Assembly: GCA_050012035.1 (NCBI GenBank)
Contig: JBEKHY010000002.1
Span: 68,302-132,301 of the forward strand
Direction of reading: 5' to 3'
DNA from: Verrucomicrobiota bacterium
GTDB lineage: Bacteria; Verrucomicrobiota; Verrucomicrobiia; Limisphaerales; UBA11358
Length of the DNA: 64,000 nt
The position numbers and the translations under genes are program-made. Numbering within the stretch: position 1 is the first letter of the stretch; every line of letters starts with the position of its first letter. The notes beneath the pieces were generated by a model. The model was not told the origin of the DNA. It saw nothing but the letters and a program-made list of their open reading frames with translations, and did not search any database. Shown piece after piece: positions 1,994-14,161 of the stretch.

Positions 1994-2692
1994 ATGACCG
2001 GCAGCACCCAGAATTTTCTGAACACCGGTATATATACCGTGCCGGAAGCAGCGCGATTGAGTCGTGTTTCGACTGGCCGCATCCGGCGCTGGCTACGTGG
2101 TTACAAGTTTCGCACCAAGAAGAAGCGGGAGTATCACTCACCAGCACTATGGCATGGGCAGCTAGAACCTATTGACCATAGCCTCGCTCTGGGATTTCTA
2201 GACTTGATCGAAATCAGGTTCGTGGATGCTTTTTTAAGGGCAGGCGTTAGCTGGGCGATGCTTCGTAAAGCACACGAGCGAGGCAAGGAACTGTTCAAGA
2301 CCCCACATCCATTTTGCACACGCAGATTTAAAACCGACGGGCATGAAATTTTTGTAGAGCTCCACAAAGAAACGGGCGAGTCCAGCCTCGTTGAGATCGC
2401 CCACAATCAACATGTCTTTGTTCAAATTGTCAGTTCGTTCCTTAAGGAGTTGGAATTCGGCGGAGCTGATGTTCTACTCCGCTGGAGGCCAACGACAAGC
2501 AGACGACTCGTTGTCCTCGATCCAACGCGCAATTTCGGACGGCCCATTGTTGCTAAATATGGTGTGCCAACGGAAATTTTGTTCCGCGCCAGCAAAGCTT
2601 GCGGTTCGGTCGGAGAGGTTTCTCGTTGGTATGAAGTGCCGGAGATTGAAATAGATGACGCGGTAGAGTTCGAGCAGTCGCTCGCCGCATGA
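1994..2692 (+). CDS. DUF433-family antitoxin (HTH + DUF433, VapB45-like)
   Basis: GIYTVPEAARL N-terminal HTH, FLDLIEIRFV, C-terminal VVLDPTRNFGRPIV..GVPTE..AVEFE; stop overlaps the start of a PIN-type gene. Confidence 0.8.
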   Translation: MTGSTQNFLNTGIYTVPEAARLSRVSTGRIRRWLRGYKFRTKKKREYHSPALWHGQLEPIDHSLALGFLDLIEIRFVDAFLRAGVSWAMLRKAHERGKELFKTPHPFCTRRFKTDGHEIFVELHKETGESSLVEIAHNQHVFVQIVSSFLKELEFGGADVLLRWRPTTSRRLVVLDPTRNFGRPIVAKYGVPTEILFRASKACGSVGEVSRWYEVPEIEIDDAVEFEQSLAA

Positions 2693-3138
2693 GGTTTTTC
2701 CTCGATAATTGCCTTGCCATTCGTCATGCCCGGGCTCTCAACGAAATGGTGAAACCGGAACACAGCTTTACACACCTACAAGAAAAATTTCGACCGGACG
2801 TGAAGGACGAGGAATGGATTTGCCTACTCGGTAAACCGACCGCGCGGGAAATCGCCCAGACCAGCGCGACGTTCACGGGCAGCCTCACGGCGATTGACCT
2901 GGGTCAAAAAACCTTGAAAGCCAAAGCCACCTTCGCCACGAAGAAGTTCAGCCTGGGCGATGACTGCGCCATTGTCGTCAATGGCAAACCGGACGGGAAA
3001 TTGACCGACCTCAGGCCCGGTGAAAATCTGGCATTCAGTTACGACGACGTGAATGGCGTGAATATTGTAAACCGGATTGCTCCGGCGGGAACGGAATCAG
3101 CCACGCAAACGACGGCAGGGCAGTCGTTGCCGCAATAA
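2689..3138 (+). pseudogene. Truncated PIN-domain toxin (VapC45-like) fused to an unrelated C-terminal fragment
   Basis: MRFFLDNCL...HLQEKF...KDEEWI matches the PIN N-terminus; the expected downstream PIN motifs are absent and composition changes near 2835. Confidence 0.6.
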
Positions 3139-3285: not shown

Positions 3286-6180
3286 ATGATTTCCGTCATC
3301 GAACATCAACCCGCCGGGGCAGGCATTGATTTGGTCAAACAAGTCGAGGGAATTTTTTCACCGACGGGGCTACTGTCGCGCGCGAAGAATTTTGAATTTC
3401 GCCCGCAGCAGCAGGAAATGGCCGTGGCGGTGGCGCGCGCGTTGCAGGGGCGCGAGCATCTCGCGGTCGAGGCGGGCACCGGCGTCGGCAAATCGCTGGC
3501 GTATCTGATTCCGGCCATCCTCTTTGCGGTGGCGCAGGAGAAAAAGGCCGTTGTCTCCACACACACCATCAATTTGCAGGAGCAGCTCACGGAAAAAGAC
3601 CTGCCGATGCTCGTGACTGTGCTCGGCGCACTGACGCCGCCGGTGAAGTTCAGTTTTGCCATGCTCAAAGGGCGCGCGAATTATCTCTGCACGCGCCGGC
3701 TGCAAAAAGCGATGCAGCAATCCGGCAATCTGTTCACGTCGTCCGAGGCCGAGGAGTTGCGGCGCATCTACGCGTGGTCAAAGAAAACCCGGGACGGCAG
3801 TTTGTCGGACTTCGACGTCGAACCCGACCCGAAGGTGTGGGCGCTGGTCTGCTCCGAGCGCGGGTTGTGCTCGCCGAAAATCTGCGGGTATCCGTCTGAT
3901 TTTGCCAAGGACCACGGCGTCTGCTTTTTCCAGCGCGCACGGAACAAGATTCTCTCATCGGACGTGCTGGTATTGAACCACACGCTGTTTTTCACGCTGC
4001 TCGGCGGCATCGAGGAGGAAGTTGAGGGCGGCATTTTGTTCAAGAACGACTTTGTGATTTTCGACGAGGCACACCAGATGGAACGGGTCGCGTCGAAACA
4101 CATTGGCCTGAGCGTGTCAAGCGGCCAGGTGCGTTACGCGTTGAACCGGCTCTGGAATCCGCGCACGGAAAAGGGCCTGCTCGCCACCTTGCGCAAGGGC
4201 GCCGCGGTGAAACTCGTCGCCGATATTCTGGATGAAGCCGACAAGTTTTTTGAAAACGTTGAGGCTGCGTGTGATGAGATTCAGCGCAATGCTGGAAAAA
4301 ACAGTTTCGGCGCGACGGAATCCCGCCCCACCAGCCGGAAGTGGACGGAACTTCGCATCCGCCGCGCGGAACTGGTGCAGGACAATGTTACTTTGCCCAT
4401 CCAGCGCCTGCGCGAAGCGGTGAGCGATTTGATCAAGCTGAGCGAGGACAAGGACATCGGGCAGGAATTGATCGAGTGCAACCGGCGGCTGGCCGAGTTG
4501 CGCGACGCGGTGAAAGCGTTCCTCGAACAGAGCGCCGCCGACCACGTTTACTGGGTCGAACGCAGCGGCAAGGCGCAAAAGAACCTTTCGCTGAACGCCG
4601 CGCCGATTGACGTGGCGGAATTTCTGCGCCGGCGTTTGTTTGAGAGCGACACGAGCATCATCATGACCAGCGCGACGCTGGCGACCGTAGGACAGGCGTC
4701 ACGCCTGTCTAGCGAGCGCGCCAGCGCGAGCGGTCAAACAAAATCAGGGCAAGTTACGCCGACTTCATCGGCGCGGGCAGGCGGGACGCCCGCCCTACTC
4801 TTCGCACCGTTCGACCCGGATGCGCCGGTTGGCATCTATGGACGACATTTACCGCATTGGCGGCAATCGAGCGCGACGTATTTTGTCACGTTTCGGCTCG
4901 CTGATTCCATCCCGCAGGACAGACTCCGACAGTGGGAGCGGGAGTTGGCCGAGTGGCTGAAAAAAAATCCGGAACCGCATTCAACGGCGCAAAAAGCCGA
5001 GTTTCATGAGCGGTTCACGGAGAGGTTTCAGCGCTGGCTTGACGCGGGCATGGGTGAATGTGTGCTGCGAAGGCCGGAAATTTCCACCGTCGTGGAAGGA
5101 GCGCTGTGTCACTTTGATGGCGAGCGTTACGTCCTCGGTCATTACGTCATCATGCCCAACCACGTCCACGTTGTGGTGCGGCCCGTGCAAGGAAATCTGC
5201 TCAAAGACATCGCCCATTCCTGGAAATCTTTCACGGCGCACAAACTGAATGAAATGTTGGGCCGCACCGGGCAATTATGGCAGGACGAATCCTTTGATTG
5301 CATTGTGCGCAATGCACTGCAACTGGAAAAAATCGGATTTTACATCCGGGAAAATCCGCCAAAAGCCGGTTTGAGGCCGGGAGAGTTTAGACTGGGAGCG
5401 GGTCGTAACGTAGGGCAGGCGTCCCGCCTGCCCAATACGCGCGAAAACGCGGACAAAGAAGAGAAAGAACTTGCGCCGGCTGCGTCGGCGCGGGCAGGCG
5501 GGACGCCCGCCCTACATTACTTCATCCGCCGCGTCGGCGCGGAATCGGCCACCCAACTGCAGGTCGGCACGCCGTTCGATTACGAGCGGCAGATGAAAAT
5601 TTTTGTCGCCAAAAAAATGCCCGACCCGCGCGAAGCCGGTTACGCCGACGCCCTCGAACATTGGATCGAACACTTCGTGAAGCAAACGCACGGCAAAGCC
5701 TTCGTGCTGTTCACGAATTACAAGCTCATGCAGGAACTCGGTGAGCGGATGGAACCGTTTTTTGACAGGTTCGGCGTCGCGTGTTTCGTGCAAGGCACCG
5801 GCACGCCGCGCACGACGATGCTGGAGAAGTTCAAAGACGACGTGGACTCGGTGTTGTTCGGCACGGACAGTTTCTGGCAGGGGGTGGATGTGCCGGGCGA
5901 ATCGCTCAGCAACGTCATCATCACGCGGCTGCCGTTTGCCGTGCCCGACCATCCGCTCATCGAGGCGCGCATCGAGGCGATTGAAGCGCGCGGCGGCGAT
6001 TCGTTCCGGGAATTCTCGCTGCCGGAGGCGATTTTGAAATTCCGCCAGGGCGTCGGCCGGCTGATCCGCACGAAGACCGACACCGGCATCATCGTCGTTT
6101 TGGATAACCGGGTTTTGACGAAGCAATACGGGCAGGCGTTTCTCGACGCGCTGCCGAAATGCCCGGTGGAAATTGTGTGA
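3286..6180 (+). CDS. dinG: DinG/YoaA-family SF2 helicase with an in-frame inserted RAYT domain
   Basis: Q motif FEFRPQQ, EAGTGVGKS, KGRANYLC (FeS region), [35 protein letters not shown]. Confidence 0.93.
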   Translation: MISVIEHQPAGAGIDLVKQVEGIFSPTGLLSRAKNFEFRPQQQEMAVAVARALQGREHLAVEAGTGVGKSLAYLIPAILFAVAQEKKAVVSTHTINLQEQLTEKDLPMLVTVLGALTPPVKFSFAMLKGRANYLCTRRLQKAMQQSGNLFTSSEAEELRRIYAWSKKTRDGSLSDFDVEPDPKVWALVCSERGLCSPKICGYPSDFAKDHGVCFFQRARNKILSSDVLVLNHTLFFTLLGGIEEEVEGGILFKNDFVIFDEAHQMERVASKHIGLSVSSGQVRYALNRLWNPRTEKGLLATLRKGAAVKLVADILDEADKFFENVEAACDEIQRNAGKNSFGATESRPTSRKWTELRIRRAELVQDNVTLPIQRLREAVSDLIKLSEDKDIGQELIECNRRLAELRDAVKAFLEQSAADHVYWVERSGKAQKNLSLNAAPIDVAEFLRRRLFESDTSIIMTSATLATVGQASRLSSERASASGQTKSGQVTPTSSARAGGTPALLFAPFDPDAPVGIYGRHLPHWRQSSATYFVTFRLADSIPQDRLRQWERELAEWLKKNPEPHSTAQKAEFHERFTERFQRWLDAGMGECVLRRPEISTVVEGALCHFDGERYVLGHYVIMPNHVHVVVRPVQGNLLKDIAHSWKSFTAHKLNEMLGRTGQLWQDESFDCIVRNALQLEKIGFYIRENPPKAGLRPGEFRLGAGRNVGQASRLPNTRENADKEEKELAPAASARAGGTPALHYFIRRVGAESATQLQVGTPFDYERQMKIFVAKKMPDPREAGYADALEHWIEHFVKQTHGKAFVLFTNYKLMQELGERMEPFFDRFGVACFVQGTGTPRTTMLEKFKDDVDSVLFGTDSFWQGVDVPGESLSNVIITRLPFAVPDHPLIEARIEAIEARGGDSFREFSLPEAILKFRQGVGRLIRTKTDTGIIVVLDNRVLTKQYGQAFLDALPKCPVEIV
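4687..5515 (+). mobile_element. REP-flanked REP-associated tyrosine transposase (RAYT/TnpA-REP, Y1 HUH) cassette inserted in frame in dinG
   Basis: RHLPHW, YFVTFRLADS, YVIMPNHVH (HUH), SWKSFTA, WQDESFD, YIRENP..AGL (catalytic Tyr); REP doublets at 4687-4798 and 5410-5515. Confidence 0.9.
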
Positions 6181-6954
6181 TTTTTTCCGTAGGACAGGCG
6201 TCGCGCCTGTCACAAATCGAAGCAGAAGCGCCTTAAGGCGGAATTTCTTCAGATGGAGACAGGCGAGACGCCTATCCTACGCTCCTACGATTTTAAAATT
6301 CGCCAGGGCGTCGGCCGGCTGATCCGCACGAAGACCGACACCGGCATCATCGTCGTTTTGGATAACCGGGTTTTGACGAAGCAATACGGCCAATCCTTTC
6401 TTGATGCGTTGCCGAAGTGCCCCGTGGAGATTGTTTGAATTTTCTGTAGGACAAGCGTCGCGCCTGTCACAAATCGAAGCAGAAGCGCCTTAAGGCGGAA
6501 TTTCTTCAGATGGAGACAGGCGAGACGCCTATCCTACGCTCCTACGATTTTGAAATTCCGCCAGGGCGTCGGCCGGCTGATCCGCACGAAGACCGATACC
6601 GGCATCATCGTCGTTTTGGATAATCGCGTGTTGACGAAGCAATACGGCCAGTCATTTCTCGATGCGCTGCCGAAGTGCCCCGTGGAGATTGTTTGAATTT
6701 TCTGTAGGACAGGCGTCGCGCCTGTCACAAATCGAAGCAGAAGCGCCTCAAGGCGGAATTTCTTCAGATGGAGACAGGCGAGACGCCTATCCTACACTCC
6801 TACGATTTTAAAAATTCGCCAGGGCGTGGGCCGGCTGATCCGCACCAAGACCGACACCGGCATCATCGTCGTTTTGGATAACCGGGTTTTGACGAAGCAA
6901 TACGGCCAGTCATTTCTCGGTGCGCTGCCGAAATGCCCGGTGAAAATTGTTTGA
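6029..6954 (+). repeat. Tandem array (~257-258 bp period): dinG 3' ~150 bp x4 alternating with REP doublet x3
   Basis: dinG tail copies at 6029-6180, 6288-6438, 6545-6696 and 6803-6954; REP doublets at 6189-6280, 6446-6537 and 6704-6795. Confidence 0.93.
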
Positions 6955-6958
6955 AGCA

Positions 6959-7861
6959 CTATTTGGAAGAAGGCAACAGCAACTGAAACGTAGTCGGAAC
7001 GTTTGTACTGATCGGATTAAAAAACGGATCGTATCGCACCACTTCCTTGAAATTGCCATTGCTATCACCGCCTCGCCAAAGTTCGGTCAGCACACCGTTC
7101 TGAAATATTTCCCGCATGGTGGAAAATTTCGAGCCATTGGGTTTGATGTCCAGCTGTTGAATTATCTGGTGCTTGTATGTGCAAAATTCATCTGGAATGC
7201 CGTTAAAATCGGTATCCTTTTGCAATGTGTCTGCTCCATCATCTGAAAGTGTCCACCATTCGTCCGGCTTTCCATCGAAATTATTGTCATATTCTGAGCG
7301 CACCGCTCGGCCATGTTCAAAAAAAGTCCAATGGTCCCAATCTCCGTCGAGATTTCTGTCTTTCATAAATTCGACCAGATGCCCATCCCGGTAAATCCAT
7401 GCTTCGTCAATTTTCCCGTCCGTTGTGTGATGGTAATATGTCTTCGTTCCAAGTTTTTCCGCCCGTTGGTAAAGCAAACAAAGCATTACTCCAAGGATCA
7501 CCCCGATAACCGCGCTGAACATGATTTGACCCAGAGCCAGTTTTTTTGGTGGAACAGTTTCCGGCGGAGCAGCAGCGACGGCTTCAGTTTCGATTTGATT
7601 AATTTCCCTGGGCGATACTTGCGCATCCAGCAAGGCGATGGCGGCTTCGGCATCCGCAGCGCGAACCAGCAAACGGACGCCACCGGGAGCTGTTAAATTT
7701 GGCAACATACCGCCGGCATCGTCAGAGTTTAACCAACATTGAATTCCATGTGCTTCAAGGTTTGTTGCGGCAACTTCGGCGGCATCGTGGCTGGTGAACA
7801 CACGAATCGTTGCAGTTTTCACTTCGTTGTGAAGACCACCGTTAGTTGGTTCGGAAGCCAT
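6959..7861 (-). CDS. Hypothetical membrane-anchored protein (DUF2007-like N-terminus, one TM helix, DxNxDGxxD repeats)
   Basis: 300-aa ORF; AATNLEAHGI..GGVRLLV; DRNLDGDWD, DNNFDGKPD, DTDFNGIPD; AT-richer than flanks. Confidence 0.65.
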   Translation of the reverse strand: MASEPTNGGLHNEVKTATIRVFTSHDAAEVAATNLEAHGIQCWLNSDDAGGMLPNLTAPGGVRLLVRAADAEAAIALLDAQVSPREINQIETEAVAAAPPETVPPKKLALGQIMFSAVIGVILGVMLCLLYQRAEKLGTKTYYHHTTDGKIDEAWIYRDGHLVEFMKDRNLDGDWDHWTFFEHGRAVRSEYDNNFDGKPDEWWTLSDDGADTLQKDTDFNGIPDEFCTYKHQIIQQLDIKPNGSKFSTMREIFQNGVLTELWRGGDSNGNFKEVVRYDPFFNPISTNVPTTFQLLLPSSK

Positions 7862-8214
7862 AATCGCGCAAAGGAATAGTCTTTGGTTTCGATACGTAAA
7901 GCCAAAAACCCGACCTGCTGGCTCTGCCCGTCATGTTTTCGACACATGAGGCGCACCGAAAACCTCATAGACGAACTCATCGCACTGCCGAAATGTCCGG
8001 TGGAGATTGTCTTAATTGTCACGCACTTGACACGAAAACGTCACTTGCGAATCCGGGAACGTGGGTTAAGTTGGCAACGTCGTACAAAGCGGGTGTTGGG
8101 TATGTAGTTTGTGTGTTGCCCGACGCCCGCTTTGCTTTCAGTCCCAAGCTCCAGCCCAAAGAGGTCTTCGAGTTATCACTTTTCCCAAGGCTAAAACGCG
8201 CTATACTGGCCCGC

Positions 8215-9261
8215 ATGTATCGGACGCAGGATTTGCGCGTCAAGGAAATCGTCCGGCTCCTGACGCCGCAGGCATTGAAGGCGCAGTTGCCGGCGACCAA
8301 GACGGCCAACACCACCGTGGCGCGCAGCCGCGAACGGGTCATCCGCATTTTACAGCAAAAAGACCCGCGCCTGCTCGTCGTCATCGGCCCCTGCTCGATT
8401 CACGACGAAAAAGGCGCCCTTGATTACGCGGCGCGGCTCAATGCGCTCCGTGAGAAACTTGCCGACCGCCTGGAAATCGTCATGCGCGTTTATTTTGAGA
8501 AACCGCGCACGACCATCGGTTGGAAAGGGTTGATCAATGACCCGCACCTGGACGGGTCGCAAGACATCGAGACGGGTTTGAAAATTGCCCGGCGGCTGTT
8601 GCTGGCCATCACCGGCATGGGCCTGCCGGCGGCAACGGAATTTCTCGACCCCATCGTGCCGCAATACATCGCGGACCTGGTCACGTGGGCGGCGATTGGC
8701 GCGCGCACAACGGAATCGCAGACCCACCGCGAGATGGCCAGCGGCCTTTCCATGCCAGTCGGTTTGAAAAACAACACGGACGGCAGCCTGCAATCGGCGA
8801 TTGACGCGATGGGCGCGGCGCGGCATCCGCACAGTTTTCTGGGCATAGACCAGGACGGCGTCACGGCCATCGTGCGCACAACCGGCAATCCCGGCACGCA
8901 CATCGTGCTGCGCGGCGGACGGGCACGGACGAATTACGATGCGGCCAGCATCCGCGACGCCGAGGCGAAATTGAAATCGGAAAAATTGCCGCCGATTTTG
9001 ATGGTGGATTGCAGCCACGCGAATTCCGGCAAACAACCCGCGCGGCAGGAGAACGTCTGGCGCAGCGTGATTCGGCAACGGGTCGGAGGCACGCGCTCGC
9101 TCATCGGCCTGATGGTCGAGAGCAACCTCAACGAGGGCAACCAGCCCATTCCGAAAAATCCGGCCGACCTGCGTTATGGTGTGTCCATCACCGACTCGTG
9201 CATCGGGTGGGAAACCACCGAACGGATGCTGCGTTGGGGCTACGAAGAGCTGGCAAAATAA
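8215..9261 (+). CDS. aroG: 3-deoxy-7-phosphoheptulonate (DAHP) synthase, class I alpha
   Basis: [63 protein letters not shown]; the paralog name (aroF/G/H) is uncertain. Confidence 0.93.
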
Positions 9262-12440: not shown

Positions 12441-12868
12441 TTCCGCCGCTGTCCAAAGTTAAATCCCGCGGAACAAAACAACGGGGAAATCGGAACGCTG
12501 AGGGCTTTTGAAATTTCCCAAAGTGCTTCGACAGAAACGGGTTGTGGCCGCTTTCGATCTGGCTGATGCAAGCCCCGCCGCCGGCCCAAACCGTAGTCTC
12601 AATTATTTTAAATTCTTTGCTTGCATTATTCCTTAGACAGTATATACACCCGGTTGTTGGAGTTGGTTTTCAGAGGAAATTCGACACGGGAAAATGTGGA
12701 AATCAAAATCGGGAAGTTTTATGGAGTGGATCGCTCCCAAAGCGGAAGCGGGAAGCCCGCCCGGCCGGGCGCCGGCAGATGTAGCCGGAGAAGGAAAAGG
12801 ATGGCCGCGCTACGGGAACCTCTTTGTTCAAATTCACCGCATCGCAACCATGAATTCGAAGGAACATT

Positions 12869-13207
12869 ATGAATACATCGGCTGAAATAAAACCCTCTAA
12901 CGCGCGTCCGCTGAAATGGCGCTGGCGGCATAAAAAATTATACTTCTACCTTTCCCTTGGTTTGACAACATTCGCCGGGGCGTTACCTGGGCTGGCTGTA
13001 TTTGCCCTGCTTTTTTGCAGCCCCCTTTATGGTGCCCTAAAGCACACGCCGGTTCTGTTGGTGCTGACGGCCTTGGCCGCTTTGGTGGTAATGGTTTTTG
13101 GCTACCTCTTGGGTGCTTTAGTGACCTGTGTTTTTTTCATCATGGAAAAAATTTGTTTCCCCGAAGATACAGGCCCGTCCTCAGAGAAACATTCTGCCCA
13201 GCAATAA
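12869..13207 (+). CDS. Small membrane protein, cassette copy 1
   Basis: 112 aa with two hydrophobic segments; paralog at 13823; aagga RBS-like motif upstream. Confidence 0.7.
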   Translation: MNTSAEIKPSNARPLKWRWRHKKLYFYLSLGLTTFAGALPGLAVFALLFCSPLYGALKHTPVLLVLTALAALVVMVFGYLLGALVTCVFFIMEKICFPEDTGPSSEKHSAQQ

Positions 13208-13622: not shown

Positions 13623-13822
13623 CTTTTCAAACGCCGAGGGCCAAAATTAAAATACAAAGAACAGTATCCGGGCGGGGAAAGCAAAAGGCAGTTGCCGGCA
13701 TACCCGCCATCGCCAAGGCCGGGGGAGCCAATTGTTGTCGAAGGAGCAAATAGGTGGCCGTGCGACCGGGAGCCCTTTTATTCAAATTCACTGAATCGTA
13801 ACCATGAAATCGAAGGAACATT

Positions 13823-14161
13823 ATGAATACATCGACTGAAATAAAACCTTCCAACACGCGCCCGCTGAGATGGCGGAACCGGCATAAAAATTTATATTTC
13901 GCACTTGGTCTTGCCGGCTGCATTGTTTTGGGGGCGTTGCCTGGGTTGGGTGCGTTTTACCTGCTCTTGGGTAACGCACACAACATCCTCAGACAAAATA
14001 CCCACTTTCAAACAATGGTTTTGCTCTTGGTGGCTTATGGGTTGCTCTTCGTTGGAATACTAATGGGTATTTTGATAGCCTGCGCATTGTTCCTTGTTGA
14101 AAAAATTTGTTTCCCCGAAGATACAGGCCCGTCCTCAGAAAAACATTCTGCCCAGCAATAA
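13823..14161 (+). CDS. Small membrane protein, cassette copy 2
   Basis: 112 aa; N-terminus similar and C-terminus (EKICFPEDTGPSSEKHSAQQ) identical to copy 1. Confidence 0.7.
   Translation: MNTSTEIKPSNTRPLRWRNRHKNLYFALGLAGCIVLGALPGLGAFYLLLGNAHNILRQNTHFQTMVLLLVAYGLLFVGILMGILIACALFLVEKICFPEDTGPSSEKHSAQQ

Follow-up and report, generated by a model that had tools for sequence, protein, structure and literature searches.

The DNA considered here is a stretch of 64,000 nucleotides (hereafter, the window) from contig JBEKHY010000002.1 of the Verrucomicrobiota assembly GCA_050012035.1, in which positions 3286 to 6180 of the plus strand hold a dinG/yoaA-like gene for an iron-sulfur (Fe-S) helicase that reads, insert included, as one open reading frame (ORF) of 964 codons without an internal stop. 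Right behind helicase motif III, this frame accommodates a transposase of the RAYT type (REP-associated tyrosine transposase, with REP standing for repetitive extragenic palindrome), which is flanked by REP doublets on both sides. An earlier note on this DNA had proposed such a complete REP-RAYT unit as an in-frame insertion in dinG, and both the 964-codon open frame and the occurrence of the same fusion in homologs bear this out. The gene is the only full DinG counted in a genome that is 97% complete. Judged from its sequence, with Walker A, DEAH, motifs III, V and VI and four Fe-S cysteines in place, the host protein would be a DinG/YoaA Fe-S helicase. Profiles for YoaA and DinG matched it in two stretches, one on each side of the insert, and Pfam placed DEAD at residues 48-103, Y1_Tnp at 619-690 and Helicase_C_2 at 794-958 of the product. 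Relatives among the matches bore the names Verrucomicrobiota, Limisphaerales or Pedosphaera. The sequencing runs holding the dinG DNA were peat and wetland metagenomes, and no RNA run was found among those listed.

The N-terminal part of the helicase (residues 1-467, positions 3286-4686) stops just past motif III, whose Met460 lies at 4663, and the C-terminal part resumes with His744 and covers positions 5515-6180, with Helicase_C_2 inside it. Between them lies a cassette of 829 nt (4687-5515) that starts with GTAG and ends with CTAC. Its left REP doublet (4687-4798) is made up of a GTAG-footed hairpin (4687-4709) and an inverted hairpin (4776-4798); the right doublet (5410-5515) is oriented like the left one, and the four hairpins are positioned at 4687 (+), 4798 (-), 5410 (+) and 5515 (-). 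The RAYT domain proper (HUH, Y1) extends over residues ~506-705 (4801-5400), with His626 at 5161, His628 at 5167, Tyr686 at 5341 and Asn690 at 5353. The cassette has neither a start nor a stop of its own, as a stand-alone REPtron gene would have. Downstream of Met460 in motif III, dinG of the window contains no in-frame ATG, GTG or TTG up to the RAYT's LPHW motif, and 74 of the 119 fused proteins described below have no methionine in this interval; an internal RAYT start was rejected on these grounds. With the dinG start as the sole option, the suggestion that the RAYT borrows host expression was supported. The reported absence of an intein signature was also confirmed, with no intein-type splicing residues found at either cassette junction upon inspection and no Hint domain or further family within the insert in the Pfam scan.

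With regard to the identity of the insert, Y1_Tnp matched residues 619-690 with 25-27 bits against a cut-off of 23, and the domain combines the HUH motif with a single catalytic tyrosine, which is the core of a RAYT/TnpA-REP protein. Its motifs NHVH, WQ and YIxxNP resemble the table rows of both subclass 2.4 and subclass 2.7 in PMC6006769, as far as motifs alone can be compared. In an AlphaFold2 model built from 107 sequences (predicted local distance difference test, pLDDT, 72; predicted template modelling score, pTM, 0.54), the RAYT is predicted as a folded domain between low-confidence linkers (residues 464-504 and 711-740) that take in the two REP doublets; the second motor domain is partly of low confidence as well, and the relative orientation of the domains is not fixed by the model. 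Foldseek matched this model to E. coli DinG (6FWR, E 5e-26) and to the E. coli RAYT 4ER8 (E 5e-5, TM score by target 0.56), and a sequence search of the PDB with the RAYT domain returned nothing related. Several near-identical copies per genome, as in IS200/IS605 elements, were not present: there is one copy, and its nearest paralogue is 43% identical.

No repeat is commoner in the genome than the family of the flanking REPs, which has 195 copies and forms 70 doublets, in line with the abundant REP family expected around a REPtron. Of the 70 doublets, 43 are located in frames that extend for 70 codons or more in each direction without a stop, a count made without a gene caller in which some frames may be due to chance. 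Among these genes is mutS (57-1898), with two in-frame doublets of the same family at 378-459 and 1108-1207. Only the dinG cassette, among 11 Y1 loci examined, is flanked by this REP family, and four of the others have different hairpin flanks of their own. All of 27 cassettes compared have a REP on their right side, and 26 of them also have one on the left; the stems vary pairwise, and hairpins within one cassette tend toward a common variant.

Conservation and allelic states of the cassette

The insert was found at the same place, right after motif III, in 119 of the 120 best database proteins (query included; 65-86% identity), with a length of 256-325 aa. None of the 119 fused proteins lacks His626, His628, Tyr686 or Asn690, and the same holds for 152 of 152 DinG-borne domains, a set that partly overlaps the former. 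On the helicase side, DEAH, SAT and motif V occur in all 119, and Walker A, motif VI and the Fe-S cysteines in nearly all. A six-frame genome search, which reads through stops, revealed no stop inside the inserts of 15 carriers from the genus, and the frame is kept at the DNA level in 27 of 27 cassettes, whose lengths between fixed dinG codons are multiples of 3. For the 20 closest of 105 carrier pairs, the ratio of nonsynonymous to synonymous substitution rates (dN/dS) was 0.07-0.29 in the insert, compared with 0.08-0.24 in the dinG flanks. Furthermore, metagenome contigs from three runs besides the possible source were identical over 4769-5514 and bridged the left junction (the right one lies outside the pieces shown). 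Misassembly, which the earlier note had named as a potential refutation, was rejected given the insert's presence in independent genomes and in these contigs. A pseudogene or dead remnant was likewise rejected in view of the invariant catalytic residues and of dN/dS values well under 1.

Cassettes were carried by 15 of 151 genomes of the genus and, among another 300 genomes of the order, by 13, which are spread over 11 families. Empty alleles, which the earlier note had proposed to look for, are what most relatives have in dinG. We classified the site at 87 dinG loci, left from 90 (the 30 best-scoring and 60 chosen ones) after G006, G054 and G114 failed the motif search, in a set biased to high scores and REP-rich genomes: 15 hold a full cassette, 15 an 11-residue loop, 6 a solo REP doublet and 51 other in-frame loops of 20-39 residues. 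The solo alleles of G004, G073 and G024 align in two blocks with the left start and the right end of a cassette (89-94%) and have the junction residues of that cassette; the remaining three fit this alignment less cleanly. Deletion between the direct-repeat doublets would be the simplest cause of such sequences, and a solo doublet may instead represent a precursor state. In the loop past motif III, in-frame inserts of eight or more further kinds occur (loci L016-L029 and L061-L118); many are runs of short inverted repeats, and they, too, move about on the dinG tree.

Exchange at the dinG site, other hosts and neighbouring sequence

The carriers are dispersed on the tree of the dinG flanks, with 12 changes of state, at least 8 of them forced by well-supported branches. 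Over 78 carrier pairs (G100 was kept out of the rpoB set because of frameshifts), identity correlated with that of rpoB for the two flanks (rho 0.45 and 0.77) and not for the insert (rho 0.05). In the pair G077/G119, synonymous divergence (dS) is 0.10 for rpoB, 0.135 for the flanks and 1.5 for the insert, and in G027/G119 it is 0.585 for rpoB against 0.257 for the insert. Of 12 splits, the insert tree has 1 in common with the rpoB tree, and the approximately unbiased (AU) test on the insert rejected both the rpoB and the flank trees by more than 700 log units. Since the flanks follow rpoB and the insert does not, cassettes appear to have been exchanged at the dinG site. In three close pairs, identity falls within ~60 nt of the cassette ends, and short donor-like patches lie beside the cassette in G119 and G034. 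One candidate transfer, between G013 and G016 (insert 95%, flanks 82% identical), was rejected and not counted, because an rpoB identity of 96% indicated that the 5' part of dinG had been replaced in G016.

In the RAYT phylogeny, 151 of the 152 DinG-borne domains fall into one clade (FastTree support 0.86; one short fragment inside), apart from the DnaE, PriA and ClpB lineages, from which we conclude one origin at the site followed by lateral spread. One lineage per insertion site, discordant with its host, is the pattern of homing elements; the mostly vertical inheritance within a genus described for REPtrons in the relevant part of PMC5581495 was not observed.

Other housekeeping proteins with an embedded Y1_Tnp domain, for which the earlier note had suggested a search, were indeed found. 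Every one of the best 34 matches of the RAYT domain in the genus is part of a stop-free open frame of 547-1500 aa, and the 116 further rows listed are, all but one, of 424 aa or less. Fifteen non-DinG loci, read by eye, comprised 6 DnaE, 5 ClpB, 3 PriA and 1 type I restriction subunit, and Pfam confirmed the DnaE, PriA and ClpB hosts in 8 of 8 frames scanned. Among 149 other representatives at 50% identity, 67 are at least 340 aa long, and a second Pfam family was detected in 48 of the 66 scanned (one of the 67 was left out); their hosts include leucyl- and valyl-tRNA synthetases (LeuRS, ValRS), CarB, RecG, XseA, HypF, PdxA, a Mur ligase and restriction-modification enzymes. The RAYTs cluster by host site. 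In DnaE, the clade occupies two different sites in different genomes (L254 compared with L047-L054 and L257). The asparagine four residues past the catalytic tyrosine is a histidine in 9 of 90 non-DinG embedded domains, as seen in ClpB hosts (L055-L059). Two RAYT domains per protein occur in P0130, P0139 and P0122 (an alanyl-tRNA synthetase, AlaRS; a DUF1156 protein; and a RAYT pair joined by a REP-encoded array).

Around dinG, several other features of the window were recorded. Behind the gene, a head-to-tail 258-nt repeat (6033-7064) forms three extra dinG 3' ends, each preceded by a REP doublet (the first at 6189-6280), and looks like a REP-linked tandem amplification; no such array was seen behind dinG at the remaining cassette loci, each with one additional match at the most. 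About 1 kb past it, a more diverged copy of the final 42 nt of dinG (7976-8017) lies at the start of the ORF 7933-9261. Upstream, the ORFs 1934-2692 and 2689-3138 have a four-base overlap, and by eye they resemble an antitoxin of the DUF433 kind and a PIN-like toxin, the 3' part of the latter turning unrelated. Finally, the start of a gene for a small membrane protein is present twice, at 12813-12959 and 13767-13913, with 82% identity between the copies.

Passenger, partner or excised element

We consider it probable, from the sequence comparisons above, that the cassette is a translated, unspliced and likely active passenger REPtron in a permissive loop of DinG, kept by selection and spread by allele replacement, with DinG best explained as a landing site and not as a partner. 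The open frame without its own start, the invariant catalytic residues and dN/dS below 1 would reflect a cassette that is kept intact and presumably made within the 964-residue protein. The peptides encoded by the REPs would serve as flexible tethers, and therefore the helicase could still fold and a monomeric RAYT could work while tethered. This enzyme would recognise single-stranded GTAG-footed hairpins and spread REP doublets, here mostly in frame within genes. An insert history unlike those of dinG and rpoB, with breakpoints near the cassette, would fit a replacement of the loop by incoming DNA that recombines within the REPs or the conserved flanking parts of dinG, perhaps with the aid of RAYT nicks. 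Recombination between the direct-repeat doublets could then remove the RAYT and leave one in-frame doublet.

A number of observations weigh against this passenger reading. Regarding the nature of the insert, a match to RAYT profiles had been named beforehand as a check, and the outcome was divided: Pfam Y1_Tnp lay above its cut-off, and NCBIfam REP_Tyr_transpos gave 49-53.5 bits, below its cut-off of 80; owing to an insert in the RAYT core, that profile aligned only partly. The database protein search lists intact long proteins only, and dinG shows a frame break upstream of the insert in 3 of the 15 carriers (G033, G117 and G119). In terms of exchange, dinG itself is mosaic: the AU test rejected the rpoB tree for the flanks by ~100 log units, with 3 of 12 splits common to the rpoB and flank trees, and in G016 and G024 (L010, L115) the 5' part of dinG is a divergent replacement allele, while rpoB is still 94-97% identical to that of neighbours. 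Loop types that lack a RAYT show a scattered distribution on the dinG tree as well (for the K type, 12 alleles with 8 changes), and no collapse joint was listed in the contigs of four runs. As for activity, one correlation would speak for the passenger reading: exact matches to the REP pattern had a median of 60 in the 15 carriers and 3 in the 136 other genomes of the genus, and 30 or more were present in 13 of 15 carriers and 19 of 136 non-carriers, the latter including five of the six solo-doublet genomes; this link is weak, since kin are not independent, the pattern was taken from this genome and those 19 non-carriers are REP-rich. A test with a REP variant gave a mixed result, with 39, 35, 16 and 2 copies in carriers of the B cassette and 34 in G013, which has another cassette.

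More tentatively, and with chances that we put below even, these cassettes might form a class of homing elements that need no splicing: as translated HUH transposase domains of conserved genes, with one lineage per site, they would copy themselves into cassette-free alleles by nicking at REP hairpins and pass through a cycle of full, solo-doublet and empty states.

The alternative that deserves most attention, although we hold it to be unlikely, is a passenger maintained by the host without any drive, in which the RAYT or its REPs benefit the cell, a role also proposed for ordinary RAYTs, and the loop is shuffled by background recombination only. Given the scattered RAYT-free loops and the mosaic dinG, the swapping could result from ordinary recombination with no drive involved; carriers are, moreover, a minority (15 of 151) and do not amount to a sweep, and ordinary RAYTs have been argued to be domesticated (PMC5581495, in the part consulted). 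However, when pairs with a flank identity of 90% or more are compared, both members have the same type of loop in 2 of 32 pairs with a RAYT allele and in 14 of 26 without one (the pairs are non-independent and the classes were set by us), and a heterologous insert of 800 nt has crossed between families of the order. In addition, the DinG-borne group does not track the species tree within the genus, as the RAYT groups covered in that publication mostly do.

We regard as very unlikely that the fusion was selected for a joint function, in which DinG unwinding would feed single-stranded hairpins to the HUH domain of a domesticated helicase-nuclease; the earlier note had offered such a coupling as a plausible engine of REP spread. 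Purifying selection on both halves, the fact that several hosts act on DNA (DinG, PriA, RecG, DnaE, XseA, restriction enzymes) and the requirement of RAYTs for single-stranded REPs (PMC8266576, in the sections at hand) would be in its favour. Nevertheless, DinG is only one of numerous host addresses, and this speaks against coupling to a helicase as the reason for the fusion: many hosts have no role on DNA (LeuRS, ValRS, AlaRS, CarB, ClpB, HypF, PdxA, oxidoreductases). Most relatives lack the insert, cassettes were swapped between species, the linkers vary in length and retain DNA hairpins that a purely protein role does not need, and in the model the tethers are of low confidence at a pTM of 0.54. 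Tethering to a single-strand translocase could nonetheless help the RAYT.

Removal of the cassette before the host protein functions, by RNA splicing or protein excision, with the open frame merely serving to make the RAYT, is in our judgement highly improbable. Some hosts are essential (DnaE, tRNA synthetases), an insert of 270 residues could be costly to them, and the doublets form stable hairpins; yet on the protein level neither a Hint domain, another insert family nor intein-type junction residues are present, the frame is conserved in each of the 27 cassettes compared as DNA, and the dinG site accommodates further in-frame loops, of 20-51 residues. An assembly artefact or dead remnant, conceivable for a metagenome assembly in which REPs are repeats, is refuted by the independent genomes and by dN/dS and has a negligible probability.

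Relation to known systems and significance

The closest known systems are the REPtrons, for example that of the E. coli RAYT TnpA-REP (4ER8) (PMC3479197, PMC8266576, PMC6006769 and PMC5581495, each in the sections available). The dinG cassette resembles them in its HUH motif and single tyrosine, its 4ER8-like fold, the inverted GTAG-footed doublets on both sides that match an abundant REP family, and its single copy. TnpA-REP is a monomer (PMC3479197) that cuts beside GTAG-footed hairpins (PMC8266576), and REPs have been described inside tnpA-REP genes of subclass 2.4 (PMC6006769). Unlike REPtrons, the cassette is read inside a host protein without a start or stop of its own, has an extra helical insert in its core and departs, in its inheritance, from the species tree of the genus. 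How REPs spread and RAYTs persist are still presented as open questions in PMC8266576 and PMC5581495, and the phylogenomic survey in PMC6006769 states that unusually long proteins were dropped as fusions or annotation errors.

The DinG-RAYT-like domain fusion itself is not new, since one is in print: a 2025 review (PMC11981726) describes a 4ER8-like domain in motor domain 1 of DinG from Humisphaera borealis (Planctomycetota) and calls it an incidental acquisition. Unlike the present case, that account concerns one protein, and its section on it is silent on REP flanks, empty alleles, selection and mobility. It could not be confirmed that the Humisphaera DinG has its site or lineage in common with the dinG cassette, and 401 genomes of its phylum, around the Planctomycetaceae genome G443, gave no junction-spanning DinG match (E 1e-45). 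The earlier note was right about the in-frame unit itself and overlooked its mobility, the solo-doublet alleles and this printed example. REP dimers of Opitutus terrae (Verrucomicrobium) and Rickettsia palindromic elements (RPEs) are likewise read in frame, the REP dimers, on record since 2013, as loops of 20-30 residues, often in repair genes (PMC3733652). The REP doublets of dinG are comparable to these, with the difference that only non-autonomous repeats are in frame there, no host-gene transposase being described in those sections of PMC3733652. Our literature search found no whole REP-flanked cassettes in frame, solo alleles or exchange, supplementary tables, which may list such fusions, being outside its scope.

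Inteins with homing endonucleases are in-frame passengers of conserved genes, with one lineage per site, a patchy and host-discordant distribution, and empty and reduced alleles. The dinG cassette is like them in all these respects. It differs in having no Hint domain or splicing residues, in a single-strand HUH enzyme instead of a double-strand nuclease and in its DNA hairpin ends, and drive is only a proposal for it. Overall, the cassette would work like a REPtron and be distributed like an intein.

For the study of RAYTs, the advantage of the dinG site is that its position is fixed and simple to align and that close relatives naturally provide the full, the collapsed and the empty form, which makes it possible to count and test gains, losses and replacements. 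Embedded RAYTs would also explain the long 'transposase-fused' annotations of DinG, DnaE, PriA, ClpB and tRNA synthetases in Verrucomicrobiota, and the tolerant loop, together with linkers that the insert supplies itself, would mark domain-insertion sites in DinG-type helicases. An intein-like lifestyle may, in this group, be possible without splicing, with a tolerant loop being sufficient.

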